From the NCBI GenBank assembly GCA_965209115.1, contig CBDBQD010000002.1:327890-391889 (forward strand): DNA of 64,000 bases, read 5' to 3'. The translations under genes were made by a program, and so were the position numbers. The DNA comes from Acidimicrobiales bacterium (GTDB taxonomy: Bacteria; Actinomycetota; Acidimicrobiia; Acidimicrobiales; CATQHL01). Below are positions 8,915-62,757 of this stretch, in pieces (within the stretch, counting starts at the first letter, position 1; each line of letters starts with the position of its first letter). The notes beneath the pieces were generated by a model. That model was given only the letters and a program-made list of their open reading frames with translations. It was not told the DNA's origin and searched no databases.

Positions 8915-9985
8915 ATGGCACAGATCAACGTGGCTATCGCCGGTGTCGGCAACTGCGCCTCGTCGCTCGTGCAGGGTGTCGAGTACTACCGCAACGCCGG
9001 CGCGGACGACGAGATCCCCGGCCTGATGCACCCGGTGCTCGGCGGCTACTCCATCGGCGACGTTCGCTTCACTGCCGCCTTCGACGTCGACGCCACGAAG
9101 GTCGGCGAGGATCTCGCCAAGGCCATCGGCAACGGCCAGAACAACACCGTGGCGTTCTGCGACGTGCCGACCTCCGGCGTGACCGTGCAGCGCGGTCCCA
9201 CCCTCGACGGCATCGGACGCTACCTCGCCGACGTCGTCGTGGAGTCGCCCCAAGCGCCGGTCGACGTCGCCCAGGTGCTGCGCGACACCGACACGCACGT
9301 GCTCGTCTCGTACCTCCCGGTGGGATCCGAGCAGGCGGCCCGCTTCTATGCGGAGCAGGCCCTCGAGGCCGGCTGCGCGCTGGTCAACTGCATGCCGGTC
9401 TTCATCGCCGGCGACGAGTCCTGGGCCGAGCGATTCCGGCGGCGCGGCGTGCCCATCGTGGGAGACGACATCAAGTCGCAGGTGGGCGCCACCATCGTGC
9501 ACCGCAACCTGGTCCGCCTCTTCCAGGACCGCGGGGTGCAGGTGGATCGCACCTACCAGCTCAACTTCGGCGGCAACACCGACTTCCTGAACATGCTGGA
9601 GCGCGACCGGCTGGAGTCCAAGAAGATCTCCAAGACCCAGGCCGTCACCAGCCAGCTGGAGTCCGAGCTGGCGGGCTCCGACGTGCACGTCGGTCCCTCC
9701 GACCACGTGCCCTGGCTCGAGGACCGCAAGTGGTGCCACATCCGCATCGAGGGCACGACCTTCGGCGACGTGCCGCTGAACGTGGAGTTGAAGCTGGAGG
9801 TGTGGGACAGCCCCAACTCCGCCGGCGTGGTCATCGACGCCATCCGCTGCGCCCGCCTGGGCCTCGACCGGGGCATCGGCGGCCCGCTGTACGAGACGTC
9901 CGCCTACTTCATGAAGTCGCCGCCCCGCCAGATGCGCGACGAGGACGCCCGCAACGCCGTCGAAGCCTTCATCGCCGGCTGCTAA
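8915..9985 (+). CDS. ino1: myo-inositol-1-phosphate synthase
   Basis: [26 protein letters not shown]-terminus with AAGGAGG 7 nt upstream of ATG 8915. The track ORF start at 8636 is an upstream extension. Confidence 0.92.
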
Positions 9986-22861: not shown

Positions 22862-23767
22862 TCAGGCGTCGGTGTATTCGTGCTTCTGCGAGCCGAAGAT
22901 CGTGGGGCGACCCGTGCGAGCGAAGTCGGGGGCGCCGTGCATCCGGCGACCGTGGACGGTGAGCATCTGGGAGGCTACGCCGCCGCAGATACGCCCGCCG
23001 TGCGCGTCGAGGGCGTCGTTCAGGCCGATCTGGGCAATGGGGTAGGAGTCGATCGCCGAGTAGGTCTGCAGCAGCAGCGGGCGAGGCCGCGTCGAATTGT
23101 TCGGCAGCGAGCCGTGGATCATGCAGCAGTTGTGGACAGTGACCGACCCCGCAGGGCCGCCGAGGTACACGATCCGGTCGAGGTCCAGGCCCGCGACATC
23201 GGCATCGTTGATTGCGCCGGCCCAGGATCCGTCAGTTCCGTACAGGTCGTACAGCGGGCCGAGATGGCTGCCGGGGAGCACGCCCATCGGCGCCATGTCC
23301 TCGTCGACGTCACTGAGGTAGACGCCGATCGTGAGGGGCGTGTAGTCGGTGTGGGGCCAGAACTGGATGTCCTGATGCCACTTCACCTCCGCGCCGCCGC
23401 CGGACCACTTGAAGTTGAGCTTGGAGTGGTGATACCGCACCGGCCCGCCCAGCAGCGCCGCGGCGAGCTGCGCGGGCGGACCCTCGAAGGTGAACCGCGC
23501 ATACGTCGGATGCCGCTCGACCGGGTAGTTCAGGCGACGCAGTTTCGGGGTCTGCGCCGTATGCGAAGGTTCGAGGTCGAACTCCTCGCCCGAGGAGGTC
23601 TCCGATCGGCTGGCCTCCACGAACTCCGCGGTGACGGCGTTCAACTCGTCGAGCCACTCCTGTCCGACGAAGCCCAGCAGGCACAGGTAGCCGTTCTCCT
23701 CGTACTCGGCTCGTTGCGCGTCGGTGATGAGACCTGCGGTGTTCGGGGGTGCTTCTGCAAGCGTCAT
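22862..23767 (-). CDS. phytanoyl-CoA dioxygenase (PhyH) family Fe(II)/2OG oxygenase
   Basis: WHQDIQFW (HxD) and the later GSVTVHNCCMIHGS motif. ATG 23767 (MTLAEAPP). The track ORF extension to 24358 is antisense to fxsA and Arg/Pro/Ser-rich. Confidence 0.85.
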   Translation of the reverse strand: MTLAEAPPNTAGLITDAQRAEYEENGYLCLLGFVGQEWLDELNAVTAEFVEASRSETSSGEEFDLEPSHTAQTPKLRRLNYPVERHPTYARFTFEGPPAQLAAALLGGPVRYHHSKLNFKWSGGGAEVKWHQDIQFWPHTDYTPLTIGVYLSDVDEDMAPMGVLPGSHLGPLYDLYGTDGSWAGAINDADVAGLDLDRIVYLGGPAGSVTVHNCCMIHGSLPNNSTRPRPLLLQTYSAIDSYPIAQIGLNDALDAHGGRICGGVASQMLTVHGRRMHGAPDFARTGRPTIFGSQKHEYTDA

Positions 23768-54344: not shown

Positions 54345-55538
54345 TCACGGCGCGGTTGGAAGTGCCGGGACGGCTCGTTTGAGGTATTCGTCGAACTTGG
54401 GGACGGTGAAGGCGGCGTAGCCGTGGCCGGCTGCGTACAGGAGCCCCTTGTCGATGAGTTGTCGTCGGGTGGGGCCGCACTGCGTCGACGACCGGGCGAG
54501 CCGCCCGGCCACGTCTCGGGCGAGTTGCGGTCCGGGGCCCAGTTCGGCCATTGCTCGCAGGTAGGTTCTCTGCAGTTCGGTGGCGCGGTCGAGGCGGACC
54601 TTGAAGAACCCGGAGTCGAGTTTGTCCTCGACGACCGCCGTGGCGATCTCGGCGTCGCGTTCGACTACGGGGCTGCGGGCCGCGGTGGCCCACACGGCCT
54701 GCCCGAATTCCTGCAGGAAGTAGGGGTAGCCCTCGGAGAAATCCAAGCCTCGATTCACGGCGGCATCACTGAATTCGACGCCGTGCTGCGCTGCCGGCTC
54801 GCGCAGCACGCGCGCCGCATCATCGGAGTCGAGGCGGCCGAGTTCGGGGAACACGAACAGTCGCTCGGCGTAGGTCTTGGCGTTGCCGACGAGTTCGTGG
54901 ATCTGCGGCAGGCCCGCGGCGGCGACCGTGATAGGCAGGGCGTGCTGAACGGTTCGATGAAGTGCGGCTATGAGGGCTTCCATCTGCCTGCTGCTCAGAT
55001 AGTGGAGTTCGTCGAGCAGCAGGACCACGCCTGTCCCCCGGTCCCGCGCCCCCTCGCCGAGGCTCACGAGCAGGTCGGTCAGGTCGGCGTTGAGGTCCCC
55101 GCTGTCAGCCAAGCCCGCCGACGGGTCTACGTCGAGCCCCACGGTCAGGAGCCCTTCCGGGTCGATTCGCAGCGTGAACGACCGCAACGTCCCCGCGGCC
55201 CGCTTCAACGCTTCGGTCCATCTTCCGGCGAAGGCGAGTTGGTGCAGCACCCGGCGGACTTCTCGCGCCAGTCCGGCGCGGAACTCCGAATCATCCCACT
55301 TGGCCACCTCGAGCTCCACCGAGCGCCATCCCAGGTCGAGAGCGAGCCGGCGGAACTCGCCGAGCAGGACCGTCTTACCGACACCGCGCAGCCCCACGAC
55401 GATCAGCGACTGTTCGGTGTGACCTGCGGCCAGTCGGCTCAGGAGAACGTCGAACGCGGCGATTTCACCGTCCCGACCGACGAGGACGGGCGGCTTGGCC
55501 CCGGCGTTGGGGGTGTAGGGATTGGTTCGGGGATCCAC
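54345..55538 (-). CDS. orphan AAA/STAND-like ATPase with a C-terminal winged-helix region
   Basis: Walker A GLRGVGKT, Walker B VVLLLDELH, C-terminal ...RTYLRAMAELGPGP...LIDKGLLY. Confidence 0.8.
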   Translation of the reverse strand: MDPRTNPYTPNAGAKPPVLVGRDGEIAAFDVLLSRLAAGHTEQSLIVVGLRGVGKTVLLGEFRRLALDLGWRSVELEVAKWDDSEFRAGLAREVRRVLHQLAFAGRWTEALKRAAGTLRSFTLRIDPEGLLTVGLDVDPSAGLADSGDLNADLTDLLVSLGEGARDRGTGVVLLLDELHYLSSRQMEALIAALHRTVQHALPITVAAAGLPQIHELVGNAKTYAERLFVFPELGRLDSDDAARVLREPAAQHGVEFSDAAVNRGLDFSEGYPYFLQEFGQAVWATAARSPVVERDAEIATAVVEDKLDSGFFKVRLDRATELQRTYLRAMAELGPGPQLARDVAGRLARSSTQCGPTRRQLIDKGLLYAAGHGYAAFTVPKFDEYLKRAVPALPTAP

Positions 55539-55654
55539 AGCACGACCAACTGTAGCGCAGTGTGAGGGCTGTGAACAGGAATTTATCGTCGTTATCTTAG
55601 TTTATTCCTAACGCATAAATCGCACTAAAGATGATAAAGCCAAGGGCGGCGGCG

Positions 55655-56232
55655 TCAGGCGTTCACGACGGCGTCCATCCAGTCGGCCACGAAGGCCGGG
55701 CCGTCGGCCGCCGAGCAGACCCGCATGTTGGGGCGGCGCTCGGGGTGGTCGATGGTGCGGAGGATCTGCCCCTCGTACTCGACGGCGATGCTTGCGTTCC
55801 GCAGGGTGGCGTGGGCGCCGCCGAGGGCGACGTGCACGGCGAGCGGGTCGTGGAGGTAGGTGCGCTCGTCGAAGTGCGAGCCGTCCAGGCCGTACTTCGC
55901 CGCGAAGTCACCGAACGGGTCGCGCATCTCCTCGATGAGCCGGACCAGCTTCTGGGAGACGGGGCCGCCGTCGCCGGCTAGGCGGTCCCGGTCGGCACGG
56001 TCGAGGTAGACCTGCAGGGTCACCTCCAAGGGCACGAGCGTGATGTCCAGCCCCGACCCCAACACGATGGCGGCGGCGAGCGGGTCGGAGTTGAGGTTCG
56101 TCTCGAAGCTCGCCGGCCAGGCGACCATGTGCCGCTCCACGATCCCGCCCATGATCGTCACCGGGCCGAGTGCGCCGGCCAGCCCGGGTTCCATCTGCAG
56201 CGCCAGCGCCAGGTTCGTGACCGGCCCGACCG
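55655..56232. repeat. direct repeat copy 1 (identical to 63423-64000)
   Basis: By-eye comparison finds no mismatch. Identity begins exactly at the stop codon of the hydrolase gene and runs to the window end. Confidence 0.85.
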
Positions 56233-56614
56233 TCAGCACCGCCAACGGGTCTCGGGTCCCTTCGGCGGCATCGATGATGAACCGGGCCGCGTCCTCGCGG
56301 GTCGGCTCGTCGTCGGGCACCTGCCGCTCGGCGTCGGTCAGCACGCCGGCGCCCTCATGGCCCCACATCTCGTTCCAGTGGAAGCCGTCGACGCTGCTGC
56401 GGCGCAGCGGTGTCGAGCGCCCGGCCACGACAGGCACATGCCGCTTGTCGGACACCTCGAGCAGCGATCGGGCGATGGCGGCCCGCAGCGGGGCGTGACC
56501 GTGGACGGTCGTCACCCCGACCAGATCCGCATCCGGCCGGGCAATCAGCAGCGCCAGCGCCAGCGCATCGTCCGCATCGGTGCCGATGTCGGTGTCGAGC
56601 AGCACTTCGGCCAT
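55655..56614 (-). CDS. nucleoside hydrolase (IunH/Rih family), copy 1
   Basis: DTDIGTDADDALALALL N-terminal Asp cluster; full length 319 aa. Confidence 0.9.
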   Translation of the reverse strand: MAEVLLDTDIGTDADDALALALLIARPDADLVGVTTVHGHAPLRAAIARSLLEVSDKRHVPVVAGRSTPLRRSSVDGFHWNEMWGHEGAGVLTDAERQVPDDEPTREDAARFIIDAAEGTRDPLAVLTVGPVTNLALALQMEPGLAGALGPVTIMGGIVERHMVAWPASFETNLNSDPLAAAIVLGSGLDITLVPLEVTLQVYLDRADRDRLAGDGGPVSQKLVRLIEEMRDPFGDFAAKYGLDGSHFDERTYLHDPLAVHVALGGAHATLRNASIAVEYEGQILRTIDHPERRPNMRVCSAADGPAFVADWMDAVVNA

Positions 56615-56663
56615 GGCGAGACGCCCTTTCGTTTGGTGACAACTTACGTGACTAGTTGAGCTT

Positions 56664-57283
56664 TGAATCGCACTGGGTTTGGTGGAGACTCGGTTTATTG
56701 GTTTCCAACCGGTTCACGGTCGGTCTGTTGGGCAGCGTAGGCCGCCTCGAATTCTGCCGGGGGTATGTCGCCGAGGTGGCCGTGGAGGCGCTGGGTGTTG
56801 TGCCAGTGCACCCAGGCGAGGGTGGCGAGTTCGACGTCGCCGACGCTGCGCCGAGGGCCCCCGGTGGGGCCGCGGATCAGTTCGGTCATCACACCAGTGG
56901 CGGTCGAGCTCCGCCGCGAAGAAAGCCGAAGCCGACTTCAAGATCGCGTTCGCCCGGCGCAGCTCCCGGTTCTCCTGCTCGAGTTCTCTGATCCTCTGAC
57001 GATCCTCCGTCGTCAGACCCGCCGCGGCGCCGTCGTCGATGTCGGCCTGTGCGACCCACTTGCGCACCGACTCGACGCCGACGCTTGACTGGTCCGCCAC
57101 CCGCCGCACCGTCCCGCGGCTCGCGCCCAGCTCGGCGCGCAACGCCCGCACCAACCGCACCGCCTGGGCCTTCTCCACCTCCGAATACCGGCGCGAAGAC
57201 CCCCTACCTGCTGAATGTCCAGATGCTATGACCCCATTCTCGCTTCCAAGCTCAGGAGCCTCCACCGAACCCAGTGCGAATCA
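56664..57283. mobile_element. internally deleted IS3-family element with both terminal inverted repeats
   Basis: Ends are TGAATCGCACTGGGTTTGGTGGAGACTC (56664-56691) and the reverse complement of 57256-57283 (TGATTCGCACTGGGTTCGGTGGAGGCTC). Inside are an OrfA-like HTH/leucine-zipper ORF and only the last 60 aa or so of OrfB. Confidence 0.8.
56714..57265 (-). pseudogene. IS3 OrfA joined to the residual OrfB C-terminus
   Basis: RRYSEVEKAQAVRLV...VESVRKWVAQA...RIRELEQENRELRRANAILKSASAFFAAELDR (OrfA). A separate frame at 56695..56892 encodes LATLAWVHWHNTQRLHGHLGDIPPAEFEAAY (integrase C-terminus). Confidence 0.75.
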
Positions 57284-57342
57284 TGGGAGCCGTGCGGTCG
57301 GGCTGGTCGGTGGGGCGTTCGCGCGGCTGTGGCGCGCGGTGC

Positions 57343-57371
57343 TTGACATCCCCGGGGGGGGGGGGATACTT
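57343..57371 (+). promoter_or_regulatory. promoter-like TTGACA - G12 tract - GATACT upstream of the large secreted-protein gene
   Basis: TTGACA at 57343-57348. The spacer tcccc + G-run places G12 at 57354-57365. GATACT is at 57365-57370 (16-nt spacer), or ATACTT with a 17-nt spacer. The element is about 95 nt before ATG 57465. Confidence 0.45.
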
Positions 57372-57464
57372 TCCCGCCCGGTCGGCCGGAAGGGTGTCGT
57401 GTCGGCCGCGTCCGGCTCCGCCTGCGGGCCGCGCCCAAGCCGACCTGACGGAGCGCACGTTGCC

Positions 57465-60398
57465 ATGAACTGCCGGATCCGCTTCGTCGCGGTGGTCGTG
57501 GCTGCGGTGCTGGCCGGGTCGTTGGCGCCGGCGGCGGCTTCCTCGCCGGCGGCGGCGCAGGAGCAGACGTCCTGGTATGTGAACGACGATCCGGTCCTGA
57601 ACGGGCCGTCGCGGTACTGGTACCGGGGTGAGGCCGGTCACGGGTTCGGGTCGAACGGCTACGTGTACACCTACGGGATCGCGGGGGAGTCGAGCGCGGA
57701 CAACTGGGCGCGCTGGTCGATGGGCCGCCGGGTGGGCCGCCAGGAGATCCAGGCGTACGTGCCGAGCAATCACGCCACGGCCACGGTGACCTACCGGATC
57801 GACGTCGGCGGCCGGGAGCACACGCGGCGGGTGGCGCAGCGCGACGTCTCCGGTTGGACGTCCCTGGGCGGCTACGACGCCGACGGGGCGCTGGTGACGG
57901 TCACCGTCCGGGACAACGAGGCGTCTCAGCACCACGCTCGCCACGGGCTCGCCGCGAGCCGCATCGGCGTGGACGCCATCCGGATGCGCTGCATCAGTCG
58001 CTGCGGTTCCGCCTCGCCCCCGCCGCCCGATCTGCCGCCCGCGCAGCCCGCTCCGCCGCCGTCTTCGCCGCGGTCCGGGTCGTCGCCGTACTGCGATGTG
58101 ATCTCGGCGGGCACCTTCGGCGGCGTGCAGAACCAGTCGGGTTTCTTCGCCGGTGGCTCCTGGTCCGATCATCATTGGCCCCATGATCATTGTTCACCCG
58201 TGAACGTTTCGGGCCGCCTCACGCAATTGTTCGAGTTCTCTCTGTCCTCCGAGGATGAGGTCACGATCGGTCTGGAGTCCTCCGACGCCGACACGTCCCT
58301 GTCCTTGTCCGACGCCCGGGGTCGGGTGATCGCAATCGACGACGACGGCGGTTCGGGCACGAACTCGCGCATCACGGCAACTCTCGCCGCCGGCACGTAT
58401 CTGGTCGAGGCCGCCTTCGACATCGAGAGCGAATCCGGGGGCTACCAATTCTCCATTGAGACCGGGCCAGGGACTCGTTCGTCGGCTCGCCCGGCCTCGC
58501 GGCAGCAGGATCCCGGGCCGTCTTCGGGGCAATCCGGGCCTGTGGCTGGCTGCGGTGTGATGCACCTCGGCACAATTGGTCCGGAACTCGGCGTTTTCGT
58601 CGATTCGGCCAATGGTCCTTGTCCGTCGGGGAACCAGACCTACCCTCACACGGGCGTGTTCGAGTTCGCACTCGCCGCCGAGTTCAAAGTCGATATCTCT
58701 CTGGAGACCCAGGAGGGTGATGAAAGGCACTTGTCACTGTCGGACGCAGAGGGTCAGGTCCTAGCGACCGGTGAAGTCGGCGGTTTCCAGGATGGCACTT
58801 GGTTGCCGTTGCTGAACTATTCGTCTATTTGGATGACGCTCCCCGCCGGCACGTATCGTATCGAGGCCGCGTCTTCGGAGTCTGCCGCGCCCTACGACAG
58901 TTATCCCGACGGCGGGGGTGGATTCTTGCTCGGGATCTACGTCTATGCGACCAACGAGCAGAACGACGACGGCCGTCGCTCACCGGACTCTGACGCGGAC
59001 GCCGGCCGAGCCACCGACCCGCCGCCGACTCCTCAACCAATGCCGCAGCGCACTGACTGGGTCGCGGAAATCCTTCAGTCTCTGCGTGAGTCCTTGCGTG
59101 AGTTCCTTGAGTTCACCGGTTCGCAACCAGAACCGGAAGACACCGACTGCGACAAGCCGCCTGGCAACAAGTATGAACGCAAGAGAGACGGTGAAGGCTG
59201 GTGGGGGGCTCTCACTGCCGAGCACCGCGTCTTCGCCCTGCAGACCTTCACGACAATTGACGGCGCTCGCGTGGAGGCTGGGACGAAGGGCGGAGAGGTG
59301 CAGCACAATCACACAAATCTCTCACAATCGGGCTGCTCGTGGATCGCCCTCGGTGCGAAGGCGAATACCAAAACGAGAGTCTCGGGGAATGCTCTCGTGA
59401 AGGGAAAGGCTGAAGTGCTGGATCGGGCAAAGGTCTACGGGAACGCTCAGGTGTACGGCGATTCCAGGGTAGTCGACGATGCCCGGGTCTACGGGAACGC
59501 TCAGGTGTACGGTGAAGCCAAGGTCTACAAGAATGCGGAAATCTATGGCGACGCTGCCATTCGTGATAGGGCACGAATTTATGGAAACGCCAAGGTGCAC
59601 GAAAATGCAAGGGTGACCGGTAACGCACGAGTCTACGGTTTGGCCGAGGTCACTGGAAGTGTGAGTTGCATAAACATAAACATAAACAACGAGAGGATCT
59701 ATGAGAGGGCAGATTGTCGGGGCGATGAGATCAAAATCGAGCCTGTGGTGACCGACGATGCTCGCGTTTACGGGAACGCGAAGGTTTCGGGTAGTGCGCG
59801 AATCGTCGGGAACGCTAAGGTTTTCGGAGACGCGGAAGTAACTGGCACAGCATTAATATTTGGCGATATGGAGATTGACTCAGACGTCTACGACGGAACC
59901 CAAGAGTACAGAAGAATCGCAGAAGAGATATTCAATAATGTCTATGCTGAGCTACACTCACAGCTCAAAGAGGATTGTCCAAAAGAAATTTCTGAAGATG
60001 ATCTCACGAACCTTACAATGTCTCTCCTGAAGGGCACTAAATCTGGTTCTGTCGAGGAGGCGATCAATTCCGGTTGTGAAAGGAATAAGTTCATTAATGC
60101 TGCTGGGAGAGCTTTGCTGCCGAGCGCGTGGGAATTTTTCGCCGAGCTAGCTCTTCCTTTGGTGAAAGCCTCGAACCTCAAAAGGCTCGAGCAGGTTGCA
60201 GATCTATTGGAGCTAGCGAAGCTGGCGCATGATGCTCGTGAAGTCGGCAAATTAGCTGACACCGTTGAGACCTTGGATGAGACCTTGGAAAAATTGGATG
60301 AGACCTTGGAAAAATGGGGCATTTCGGAGGCAGAGTTAGAGTCATACAACAATAAGGTTCGTGAAGAATACGAAAGACTGTTGGAGGCCGGCGGATAA
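57465..60398 (+). CDS. large secreted multidomain protein: conserved N-terminal module, 2 PPC-like domains, hexapeptide beta-helix, helical C-terminus
   Basis: Signal peptide MNCRIRFVAVVVAAVLAGSLAPAAASSPAAAQ. PPC-like blocks (...TIGLESSDADTSLSLSDARGRVIA...AGTYLVEA...YQFSI, and a second). 13+7 hexads of A.VYGN type at about 59379-59880. GGAG lies 12 nt before the ATG. The track start at 57039 crosses the IS end. Confidence 0.8.
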   Translation: MNCRIRFVAVVVAAVLAGSLAPAAASSPAAAQEQTSWYVNDDPVLNGPSRYWYRGEAGHGFGSNGYVYTYGIAGESSADNWARWSMGRRVGRQEIQAYVPSNHATATVTYRIDVGGREHTRRVAQRDVSGWTSLGGYDADGALVTVTVRDNEASQHHARHGLAASRIGVDAIRMRCISRCGSASPPPPDLPPAQPAPPPSSPRSGSSPYCDVISAGTFGGVQNQSGFFAGGSWSDHHWPHDHCSPVNVSGRLTQLFEFSLSSEDEVTIGLESSDADTSLSLSDARGRVIAIDDDGGSGTNSRITATLAAGTYLVEAAFDIESESGGYQFSIETGPGTRSSARPASRQQDPGPSSGQSGPVAGCGVMHLGTIGPELGVFVDSANGPCPSGNQTYPHTGVFEFALAAEFKVDISLETQEGDERHLSLSDAEGQVLATGEVGGFQDGTWLPLLNYSSIWMTLPAGTYRIEAASSESAAPYDSYPDGGGGFLLGIYVYATNEQNDDGRRSPDSDADAGRATDPPPTPQPMPQRTDWVAEILQSLRESLREFLEFTGSQPEPEDTDCDKPPGNKYERKRDGEGWWGALTAEHRVFALQTFTTIDGARVEAGTKGGEVQHNHTNLSQSGCSWIALGAKANTKTRVSGNALVKGKAEVLDRAKVYGNAQVYGDSRVVDDARVYGNAQVYGEAKVYKNAEIYGDAAIRDRARIYGNAKVHENARVTGNARVYGLAEVTGSVSCINININNERIYERADCRGDEIKIEPVVTDDARVYGNAKVSGSARIVGNAKVFGDAEVTGTALIFGDMEIDSDVYDGTQEYRRIAEEIFNNVYAELHSQLKEDCPKEISEDDLTNLTMSLLKGTKSGSVEEAINSGCERNKFINAAGRALLPSAWEFFAELALPLVKASNLKRLEQVADLLELAKLAHDAREVGKLADTVETLDETLEKLDETLEKWGISEAELESYNNKVREEYERLLEAGG
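57554..57920. repeat. dispersed repeat shared with 52127-52492 (diverged in patches)
   Basis: Long identical runs, e.g. gtgaacgacgatccggtcctgaacgggccgtcgcggtactggtaccggggtga and gggatcgcgggggagtcgagcgcgga. Confidence 0.8.
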
Positions 60399-61016
60399 TC
60401 GCCGCGGACCGGCGCCGACCATGGCCGGTCCGGTCAGGGGCAGGTACACGTGCCGGAAGACCCGCCAGGCGCCGGCGCCGTCGATGGACGCGGCCTCGGC
60501 GAGCTCCGCGGGGATGTCGAGGTAGAACTGGCGCAGCAGGAAGATCGCCAGCCCGTTGCCCACCCCCGGCAGGATCAGGCCGATGTAGCTGTTGTCCAGC
60601 CCCACATCGCGCGCGGCGTCGGCCAGGGGGATCGCCAGCGCCTCGAACGGCACCATGAAGGCCAGCACGACCAGGGCGAAGACGAACCCGCGGCCTCTGA
60701 AGCGGAACGCCGTCAGCCCGTAGGCCGCCATGGCGGATATCAGCACGCCCACGGCGACCGTGGCGCCCGCCACGATCAGCGAGTTGAGAATGGCGCGCCC
60801 CAGCGTGCCGTGGGCGACCGCCGCCACGTTCTCGGCGGTGACCGCGTCGGGGATGAACGTGCGCCACTCCAGGCCCCGGAAGGACTGGAACACGGCGTTG
60901 GCGGGGCGGAGCCCGGAGGCCACGGTCCAGGCCAGCGGCGCCAGCCACAGGATCGCGAAGACGGGCACGAGCACCACCAGGGGCGCCCGGCCCCAGCGCG
61001 GCATGTCAAGACGCAT
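60399..61016 (-). pseudogene. 3'-truncated carbohydrate ABC transporter permease (MalG-like)
   Basis: Has the EAA-loop region EAASIDGAGAWRVFRHVYLPL but lacks the last TM segments. The reading frame runs into the AT-rich 3' end of the large gene. Confidence 0.7.
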
Positions 61017-61023
61017 GGCGTAG

Positions 61024-61347
61024 GGGCTCGGTGGGGCCGCGCATCAGCCGGAACTGCACGGCCACGAGCTCAAGGCCGCGTTCTGGGAGATCTTCAACCC
61101 GCCCGAAGACATCGACCCAGGCGAGGCGGCCGTCGGTGCGGCGCAGGCCAACATCGACTCCTTCGCCCGCCGATATGAGCGCGAGTTGCCCGCCGCCGCC
61201 AAGTGCCTTCTCACCGATCGGCGGGCCCTCAACGCCTACATGAGGTTCCCTCCTGCGCACTGGAAACGCATCCGCCACACCAACCTCATAGAGCGCACCT
61301 TCGGCGAGACCCGACGACGGGTCAAAGTCATGGGAAGACGAAGCTGA
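61024..61347 (+). pseudogene. IS256-family transposase fragment (truncated at both ends)
   Basis: My translation gives ...CLLTDRRALNAYMRFPPAHWKRIRHTNLIERTFGETRRRVKVMG, the conserved C-terminal IS256 block. There is no start codon and the stop is premature. Confidence 0.7.
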
Positions 61348-61416
61348 GGAGCCAGTACCGGAGCTGCCGACACCCGGCGGCGATTAGGACGGTTGGTTCC
61401 GCTGCCGCGCGAGAAT

Positions 61417-62757
61417 TCATGCCTCCCACAGGTATGACAGCGGCAGGGCGCCGATCCGATCGGAGAGCCTGTGCGGATGCTGGCCGGCGTAGAGCACGAT
61501 GCCGACGTCGAAGCGGTCGCCGATGAGATCACGCAGCCACACGAGCCAGCGGGCGTCGGAGGGGCGGGCGGTGGCACCGGCCTTGGTCTCCACCGCGATG
61601 ACTCGCCCGTCGGGGCGCTCCATCAGCAGATCCACCTCACGGCCCCGGGAGTCGCGGTAGTGGCAGAAGCGCAGCTCCGGCGCGAGCGCGGAGGCCTGCC
61701 GACGGAGCTCGTTGAAGACGAACGTCTCATGCAGTGGTCCGCGGTGGGCAGCAGCCGGGTCGCTCAACGACTCGGTATCGACACCCAGCACGGCAGCGGC
61801 CAGTCCGGTGTCGGTGAGGTGGATCTTCGAGCGGCGCTTGGCTCTCGTCGCCGCGCCCGGGGCCCAGCCCTCCAGCCGGGCCACGAGGTGGGTCATCTCC
61901 AAGTACGACAGGTAGTCCGCGGTGGTGCCGATGCTGCCGAATCCCACATCACGGTGAAGGTCCTGTACGACAAGCTCCCCGGCGGTGCGAGCCGCCACCG
62001 CGTGCAGCAGTCGAGGCAACTCGCTCGATCGCCTTGCCCCCGTCAGCTCGACGATGTCACGAGTCACGGCTGTGTGGACATACGCCCGGAACCACAGCTG
62101 CCGGTCAGCGTCCGGCAGGCCGATCACCTCCGGGTAGCCGCCCCGGCACACCCGCTCGGCGTACTGGGAGCGGCTGAGCGCCGACGGCGGCGACCGCAGC
62201 AGGTCACTCAAGGCGGCGCGCGGCTCATCGAGCAGCCGCGCCAGCAGCCCGTCGCCGCCGTCATCCATCTCAACCTGCGAGAATGGGGTGAGCTCGAAGA
62301 ACACGGCCCGTCCGGCCAGCGACTCCGACAGCACCGGGACATGCAGGAAGCCGGCCGAGCCGGTGAGCAGGAACCGGCCGGGCACCGGGTCGGCGTCGAC
62401 GGCCAGCTTGATCGCCCGCACCAGGTCGTCGCCGCCGCGCTGCACCTCGTCGATGACGGTGGGGCGGGGCCGGTCGGACACGAACCCCGCCGGATCGTCG
62501 CGAGCCAGCGCCGCCAGAGTCGGATCGTCAAGACTCAGGAACGCCCGGTCAAGACTGATGGGCTTGCCGTCAAGGCTGAGAAGCCTGCCGTCAAGAGTCA
62601 GGAATGCTCCGTCGGCCGCGATCCGGTGTGCCAGCGTGGTCTTGCCCGACTGGCGCGGCCCCTGCAGGACCACCACCCGGAACGTGTCGAGCGCGCGTCG
62701 CAGCACCGGCTCTATCTGACGCTGCACCAGCGCCTGTCGCTCCTGCCTAAGTGGCAC
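61417..62757 (-). CDS. AAA_14/DUF4143-type ATPase
   Basis: Walker A GPRQSGKTT, Walker B VIDEVQ, C-terminal DUF4143-like ...EVDLLMERPDGRVIAVETK. Confidence 0.82.
   Translation of the reverse strand: MPLRQERQALVQRQIEPVLRRALDTFRVVVLQGPRQSGKTTLAHRIAADGAFLTLDGRLLSLDGKPISLDRAFLSLDDPTLAALARDDPAGFVSDRPRPTVIDEVQRGGDDLVRAIKLAVDADPVPGRFLLTGSAGFLHVPVLSESLAGRAVFFELTPFSQVEMDDGGDGLLARLLDEPRAALSDLLRSPPSALSRSQYAERVCRGGYPEVIGLPDADRQLWFRAYVHTAVTRDIVELTGARRSSELPRLLHAVAARTAGELVVQDLHRDVGFGSIGTTADYLSYLEMTHLVARLEGWAPGAATRAKRRSKIHLTDTGLAAAVLGVDTESLSDPAAAHRGPLHETFVFNELRRQASALAPELRFCHYRDSRGREVDLLMERPDGRVIAVETKAGATARPSDARWLVWLRDLIGDRFDVGIVLYAGQHPHRLSDRIGALPLSYLWEA
62527..62610. repeat. four imperfect in-frame 21-bp tandem repeats inside the DUF4143 ATPase gene
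   Basis: Units are gtcaagactcaggaacgcccg / gtcaagactgatgggcttgcc / gtcaaggctgagaagcctgcc / gtcaagagtcaggaatgctcc. They encode FLTLDG RLLSLDG KPISLDR AFLSLDD. Confidence 0.8.

Follow-up and report, generated by a model that had tools for sequence, protein, structure and literature searches.

An uninterrupted run of 12 G in the window, that is, in the whole 64,000-nucleotide stretch of DNA analysed here, is probably the hypermutable spacer of a housekeeping-sigma promoter, and slipped-strand changes in its length would act as an on/off or rheostat switch of the downstream gene for a secreted protein. An earlier reading of this DNA (the sequence-only reading) had proposed a candidate switch for phase variation, with the homopolymer determining the distance between the −35 and −10 elements. 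That proposal is supported in those of its parts that sequence comparison can address: the hexamers are invariant, the G tract is pure and varies in length, and a second promoter is built alike.

Promoter anatomy and the poly-G tract

The segment 57343–57371 reads TTGACATCCCCGGGGGGGGGGGGATACTT and contains TTGACA at 57343–57348 and an uninterrupted G12 at 57354–57365, both where the sequence-only reading had placed them. The tract is the sole homopolymer longer than 7 nt in the 64-kb window, the next longest being two G7 runs and one C7 run, which agrees with the claim that runs this long are otherwise absent from it. The window has a G+C content of 68.8%, and in 64 kb G runs of at least 12 nt are expected 0.03 times by a first-order Markov model and 0.15 times by an independent-base model. 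A consensus scan of positions 55000–61500 returned three sigma-70-like sites as against 0.8 ± 0.8 in shuffled sequences, and the top-ranked site is the TTGACA/G12 promoter, with 10 of 12 matches.

Three overlapping hexamers are candidates for the −10 element: GATACT (57365–57370), ATACTT (57366–57371) and TACTTT (57367–57372), at 16, 17 and 18 nt from TTGACA, respectively. The first two, with a spacer of 16–17 nt, had been proposed earlier and are present as stated, but the conserved hexamer is TACTTT and the earlier spacer is off by 1–2 nt. TACTTT is taken as the working −10 element, with a spacer of 18 nt, because it is the only one of the three that is conserved across the relatives. Its TAnnnT form is typical of actinobacterial housekeeping promoters. 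The predicted transcription start would lie at about 57379–57381, and the start codon ATG 57465 begins 99 nt past the G tract. The elements of the promoter, the gene that it precedes and the neighbouring insertion-sequence relic are as follows (L-numbers denote compared loci and contigs).

56664..57283, minus strand: IS3-type element, internally deleted, 620 bp, with an orfA HTH_Tnp_1 remnant and 28-nt TG...CA inverted repeats; also present in L017
57339..57349, plus strand: −35 block GTGCTTGACAT, with the hexamer TTGACA (57343–57348) a perfect consensus match; invariant in 5 of 5 homologous promoters, with diverging sequence upstream
57350..57353, plus strand: non-G part of the spacer, T57349 followed by CCCC; relatives have TGC or TCACGC instead, 3–6 nt across genomes
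57354..57365, plus strand: G12, the length-variable part of the spacer; G8 in L017, G9 in L010, G11 in L007, G13 in L006, G16 in L008/L009, contig end in L018 and L019
57367..57372, plus strand: −10 hexamer TACTTT (TAnnnT type), 18 nt after TTGACA; invariant in the 5 aligned promoters and in L017
57373..57464, plus strand: predicted 5' leader, moderately conserved, with a GGAG Shine-Dalgarno sequence at 57450–57453
57465..60398, plus strand: gene for a 977-aa secreted modular protein: signal peptide, weakly Golvesin_C-like N-domain, two PPC domains, YdcK-type beta-solenoid, C-terminal module of low G+C content

The earlier placement of the element, about 95 nt upstream of ATG 57465 and about 60 nt from the end of the IS3 relic, holds, the relic ending 59 nt 5' of TTGACA. 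The promoter is thus outside the relic. An IS-borne or hybrid outward promoter was considered and rejected, since 59 nt separate it from the inverted repeat and genomes without an IS at this place have the same conserved promoter. The integrase part of the relic is deleted, and a weak rve_3 fragment is called in L017. The Rfam family ALIL, an IS3-family frameshift pseudoknot, matches 56852–56927 on the minus strand below threshold, scoring 25.7 bits where the gathering cut-off is 50, which is consistent with IS3 ancestry.

An Rfam search of the leader (57373..57464) gave no match to a known cis-regulatory RNA. A conserved fold of the leader has no covariation support, the covariation term being unfavourable and compensatory pairs numbering 1 of 25. 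No further copies of the promoter module were found in the window, and matches to the −10/discriminator motif occur in it at chance level.

Conservation of the promoter in homologous loci

The loci compared, P0002/L006, P0005/L007, P0003/L008 (= L009) and P0006/L010, come from related Acidimicrobiia-type metagenome genomes. At the protein level the homologues show about 50% identity, and all four genes are preceded by a matching architecture about 95–100 nt 5' of the ATG. The locus L007 is syntenic, with the SUF operon, Pterin_4a, the secreted-protein gene, a nucleoside hydrolase and ABC permeases. The promoters of the five loci are built as follows.

L006: TTGACA-TGC-G13-T-TACTTT; tract G13, spacer 17 nt
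L007: TTGACA-TGC-G11-CG-TACTTT; tract G11, spacer 16 nt
L008/L009: TTGACA-TGC-G16-TACTTT; tract G16, spacer 19 nt
L010: TTGACA-TCACGC-G9-TACTTT; tract G9, spacer 15 nt
Window: TTGACA-TCCCC-G12-A-TACTTT; tract G12, spacer 18 nt

The only invariant islands in the upstream alignment of these five promoters are GTGCTTGACAT and TACTTT. Upstream of the −35 block alignment is essentially impossible, and conservation ends abruptly there. The G tract is pure in every species compared, at lengths of 9, 11, 12, 13 and 16 nt. A shorter tract goes together with a longer non-G part, 6 nt with G9 in L010 and 3 nt with G13 in L006, and this partial compensation of tract length by the rest of the spacer is as expected if the total spacing is under selection.

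A CCCC/GGGG hairpin that can be drawn in the window was rejected as a conserved feature, as the relatives carry TGC at this place. At about 9700–9800 of L006, 90–190 nt 5' of its promoter, a unit of about 24 nt (GCCGGTGCACTGTTCAGCAGTTT) occurs four times in tandem; the other loci lack it.

Tract length in closely related strains

The closest comparison is provided by L017, a JGI contig from another metagenome which carries P0057, a cluster-mate of the closest homologue, and which has the same IS relic, upstream sequence and signal peptide as the window. Over 1.4 kb (56600–58000 of the window) the two differ at one SNP (57864), in a small patch within the relic and in the length of the tract, G8 in L017 and G12 in the window, and in nothing else; the 200 nt on each side of the tract are identical. 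The spacer in L017 is 14 nt long. A change from G8 to G12 amid 1.4 kb of near-identical sequence indicates that the tract changed far faster than its flanks, and per site it would therefore have been altered orders of magnitude faster. Comparison of tract length among strains, named in the sequence-only reading as a check on the switch, thus comes out in its favour, with G12 against G8 at a near-identical locus and lengths of 8–16 across the relatives.

Two more contigs from short-read assemblies, L018 (NCBI MAG contig) and L019 (ENA scaffold), apparently share the source sample SAMN13943206, and each of them breaks off within the homologous tract or just past it. L018 begins with G15AG7 followed by G/C-biased miscalls, which occur after both of its tracts, and L019 begins just past the −10 hexamer. 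Breaks at this position are suggestive, as a homopolymer that is long or heterogeneous would be expected to cause them.

Homopolymer lengths are error-prone in assemblies, especially in those from long reads. Independent assemblies of one sample give an identical tract length in two cases, L008 versus L009 and L020 versus L022, and this reproducibility, together with the range of 8–16 nt, argues that the length differences are real. That G12 itself is an artefact of sequencing or assembly, either two-colour Illumina poly-G or a joined contig end, is hardly credible. Poly-G artefacts do exist, and two contigs end at the homologous tract, as would also be seen with such an origin. However, the tract occupies the same position between the same hexamers in independent assemblies from several samples and pipelines, ranging from short scaffolds to contigs of 2.1–3.7 Mb, and in the window it is embedded within a contig with unique sequence on both sides. 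Conservation of the tract across assemblies effectively refutes an artefact.

A second promoter of the same design

A second G run is present in L008/L009 at 23216–23242, where the sequence is GTTGCTTGACATC-G11-TACGTT. The promoter GTTGCTTGACATC-G(n)-TACGTT lies 92–107 nt 5' of a gene for a 548–553-aa protein with S-layer homology (SLH) domains; it is also found at 9466–9580 of L020 and in L021–L026, and is divergent from a PIN/antitoxin pair. Its tract is G11 in four mutually 100%-identical contigs from different assemblies or samples (L020, L024, L025 and L026); the strain in sample SAMN13943206, which is 98% identical, has G14. The constancy of G11 among the identical contigs implies that the consensus tract length is stable within that strain.

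Similarity between the two promoter types extends over about 20 nt 3' of the −10 hexamer, TACTTTGCCGCCCGG in the secreted-protein promoter and TACGTTGTCGCCCCGG in the SLH promoter, suggesting that a reused module reaches into the initially transcribed region. Every G run of at least 8 nt in the window and the related loci, about 170 kb in all, sits in this promoter context. A scan of genome contigs with TTGACATCCCC-N(4-24)-ATACTTTCCC produced only four unrelated, promoter-like chance matches, in Dehalococcoidia, Ruminococcus, Clostridiaceae and Saprospiraceae. A scan of metagenome contigs with GCTTGACAT-N(0-8)-G8-N(0-14)-TACKTT produced six unrelated low- or mid-GC contigs and no further related copies.

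With both promoters at hand, the reading as an ordinary constitutive promoter can be weighed. Its spacer would be G-rich by chance, the tract would drift neutrally in length without any switching, and some of the differences would be assembly miscalls. The uniform G11 of identical-strain contigs from different assemblies fits such a promoter, as do the errors beside the tract in L018 and the known weakness of assemblies in homopolymers. A homopolymer free of constraint should nevertheless decay by substitution, yet in all seven alleles, from two loci, the tract is G throughout, with proteins that are only about 50% identical. Moreover, spacers of 14–19 nt cannot all give equal activity with both hexamers perfectly conserved, and the 4-nt difference between G8 and G12, like the range of 9–16 nt, exceeds typical miscalls. 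Neutral drift is therefore considered unlikely.

It is somewhat less likely still that the G tract acts other than through spacing, for example as a regulator site, through non-B DNA such as a G-quadruplex in the non-template strand, or within an RNA leader transcribed from an upstream start. The resemblance past the −10 hexamer of the two promoter types speaks for such a role, the module being larger than a minimal promoter and thus able to include an operator. So does the common SLH allele, as G11 leaves a spacer of only 13 nt, a poor fit to simple spacing logic: either the SLH promoter is 'off' in most samples, or its −10 hexamer is wrongly assigned or the spacing logic incomplete. Against the particular forms of this alternative, a protein-binding site would not tolerate lengths from 8 to 16, and a canonical intramolecular quadruplex of three tetrads needs a longer stretch than a single run of 8–16 G. 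An upstream start is at odds with the abrupt end of conservation just 5' of the −35 block, and an RNA leader with the lack of an Rfam match and of leader covariation.

The secreted-protein gene and rearrangement of the locus

The 977-aa product begins with a typical signal peptide (MNCRIRFVAVVVAAVLAGSLAPAAASSPAAAQEQ...), in line with the earlier description of the product as secreted, and the homologues of this protein also carry signal peptides. The head of the family is conserved, comprising the signal peptide, a 150-aa weakly Golvesin_C-like N-domain and PPC repeats, while the C-terminal modules are swapped among the homologues. The G+C fraction is 0.55 at 59001–60000. One homologue, P0004, is called from an internal ATG.

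The window is rearranged relative to its syntenic relatives. At the ancestral position after Pterin_4a, where L007 has the intact promoter and gene, the window contains a headless copy of the N-domain followed by orphan modules.

52127..52532, plus strand: headless paralogous N-domain copy (ORF 52152..52532), 87% identical to 57554–57922, 41 nt after the Pterin_4a stop, without promoter, G tract or signal peptide

The intact gene and its promoter are found on the far side of the nucleoside hydrolase, beside the IS relic and abutting a truncated ABC permease ORF. This arrangement suggests that loss or relocation of the head, made of promoter plus signal peptide, may be a second route by which the gene is silenced. 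In the JGI contig L001 (1–450) the same headless junction is fused to a full-length gene body.

The orphan C-terminal modules, of low G+C content (about 50–62%), are at 52496–53332 and 53502–54300. The ORFs 52427..53332 and 53521..54300 resemble the variable C-termini of the family, the latter being like the C-terminus of P0004, and a signal-peptide fragment, MKSRIHLV, is encoded at TTG 53502. In its layout the region is similar to the orphan cassettes arrayed at polymorphic toxin loci, but neither a toxin domain nor an immunity gene was recognised.

Segment 55655–56232 is repeated with 100% identity over 578 nt at 63423–64000, where the repeat runs off the end of the window; the repeated sequence corresponds to the 3' portion of the gene for the inosine-uridine nucleoside hydrolase. 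Either a segment was duplicated very recently or the repeat arose in assembly, and a second hydrolase-IS-promoter unit could follow beyond 64000. The truncated ABC permease ORF (60342–61016, minus strand), which corresponds to positions 1–119 of the 184 of the BPD_transp_1 profile, overlaps the 3' end of the secreted-protein gene, suggesting that insertion of the gene may have disrupted a permease operon that is intact in the relatives.

The homologues with organism names are from 'Acidimicrobiia bacterium' MAGs, Candidatus Poriferisocius and Candidatus Poriferisodalis (Acidimicrobiales). From the organism names of these related matches, and from them only, we infer a sponge habitat.

Proposed mechanism

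In the favoured reading, the G tract as a variable spacer, RNA polymerase with a housekeeping sigma factor of the sigma-70/SigA-HrdB type would use TTGACA (57343–57348) as the −35 and TACTTT (57367–57372) as the −10 element and transcribe the 977-aa gene from about 57380. Slipped-strand mispairing during replication would add or remove G's. Their number would set both the distance and the rotational phasing between the hexamers, for which the observed spacers of 13–19 nt compare with an optimum of about 17 ± 1, and expression would thereby depend on tract length. Lineages would shift, heritably and reversibly, between strong, weak and absent transcription of a protein that is secreted or exposed on the surface, presumably with frequent change within populations, and intermediate tract lengths would give rheostat-like levels. 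On this scale the promoters of the window (18 nt), L006 (17 nt) and L007 (16 nt) are predicted to be 'on' or near it, while those of L017 (14 nt), L010 (15 nt) and L008 (19 nt) and the G11 allele of the SLH promoter (13 nt) would be low or off. To our knowledge, Actinobacteria are without MutS/MutL, and their NucS pathway has been reported not to correct indels; tract instability would be favoured under these conditions.

Promoter-spacer phase variation by simple sequence repeats is recognised by a repeat of at least about 8 nt, which is G12 here and G8–G16 in the relatives. The repeat separates the −35 from the −10 element in the promoter of the gene that is switched, as it does here by in silico assignment only, and its length differs among close strains with conserved flanks, as for G12/G8 in the window and L017 and for G11/G14 at the SLH promoter. 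A surface-exposed or secreted product, typical of such systems and not strictly defining, is indicated here by the signal peptides and SLH domains. The class also involves frequent, reversible length change within a clonal population, for which the contig breaks at the tract are no more than suggestive, and transcription that depends on repeat length, with which spacers of 14–19 nt, on either side of the usual optimum of 16–18 nt, are consistent. The class of mechanism is already known, and the lineage and the target genes are new; membership of the class is supported by those features that can be read from sequence.

Comparison with known systems

Homopolymer switches in promoter spacers are textbook knowledge in a few host-adapted pathogens (Bordetella, Neisseria, Mycoplasma). 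In Neisseria meningitidis the poly-G of porA and the poly-C of opc and fetA lie between the −35 and −10 elements, and spacer length determines high, intermediate or no expression of the outer-surface protein; these tracts are documented to change in length within clones, at rates of roughly 1e-3 to 1e-4 per generation. The homopolymer described here has the same place in the spacer, in a different phylum, and its differences are between strains only.

The poly-A spacers of Mycoplasma hyorhinis vlp and the TA repeats of Haemophilus influenzae hifA/hifB are likewise simple repeats between −35 and −10, which switch variable surface proteins. As in vlp, one promoter design is reused before several surface-protein genes. 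Unlike in vlp and hif, the repeat unit is G rather than A or TA, and the genome is of 69% GC rather than AT-rich; in addition, vlp has repeat variation in the coding region.

The C-stretch promoters of Bordetella fim were reportedly described by Willems et al. in 1990. The present promoters are similar to those of fim2, fim3, fimX and fimN of Bordetella pertussis and B. bronchiseptica in that a long G:C homopolymer (7–20 nt in Bordetella) is located in the promoter of a surface protein, is polymorphic among strains and belongs to a design common to several paralogous promoters (Gogol et al. 2007, PMC1891110). The C-stretch lengths are polymorphic at 10–15 nt in fim2, 13–18 nt in fim3 and 7–8 nt in fimX and set the transcript level, and in fimX a single-base change alters the transcript about fourfold (PMC1891110). 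The fim promoters, however, are activated by BvgA, have a 'fim box' and belong to a Gram-negative pathogen, whereas the tract described here is between a perfect TTGACA and a TAnnnT −10 hexamer in an uncultured high-GC actinobacterium known from sequence alone. The targets differ as well, being here a modular PPC/beta-solenoid secreted protein and an SLH protein.

Within the same phylum, Actinomycetota, homopolymer indels in the Mycobacterium tuberculosis complex are reversible adaptive variants, some of them intergenic and transcription-altering, with glpK and the poly-A upstream of espA as examples (Vargas et al. 2023, PMC10334774). These tracts are about 7 nt long and mostly coding, and the espA tract, proposed to be an UP element about 48 bp 5' of the start site (PMC10334774), is not a −35/−10 spacer; no G spacer of 8–16 nt has been described for M. 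tuberculosis. A literature search for phase variation or homopolymeric tracts together with sponge symbionts or Acidimicrobiia found nothing relevant.

Implications

A wider proposal is more tentative than that for the single promoter, its chances being judged close to balanced. Uncultured, probably sponge-associated Acidimicrobiia may possess lineage-wide contingency promoters, made of GCTTGACAT-G(8-16)-TAC(T/G)TT and a conserved initial transcribed region, before genes for cell-surface and secreted proteins, both the modular PPC/beta-solenoid proteins with swappable C-termini and the SLH proteins. Pressure from host or phage might then turn their populations into mosaics of expression states.

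Contigs tend to break at these promoters, and surface-protein genes in MAGs may often lose their 5' ends or promoters. If the switch is confirmed, GCTTGACAT-Gn-TACKTT would be a conserved signature for finding such genes, and existing metagenomic reads could tell, for each sponge and without cultivation, which of these genes are on or off. Should the wider proposal hold, a promoter-spacer system of phase variation would be seen for the first time in Acidimicrobiia and in a marine invertebrate symbiont, and confirmation would show contingency loci at work in varying the surface and the secretome of uncultured marine invertebrate symbionts.
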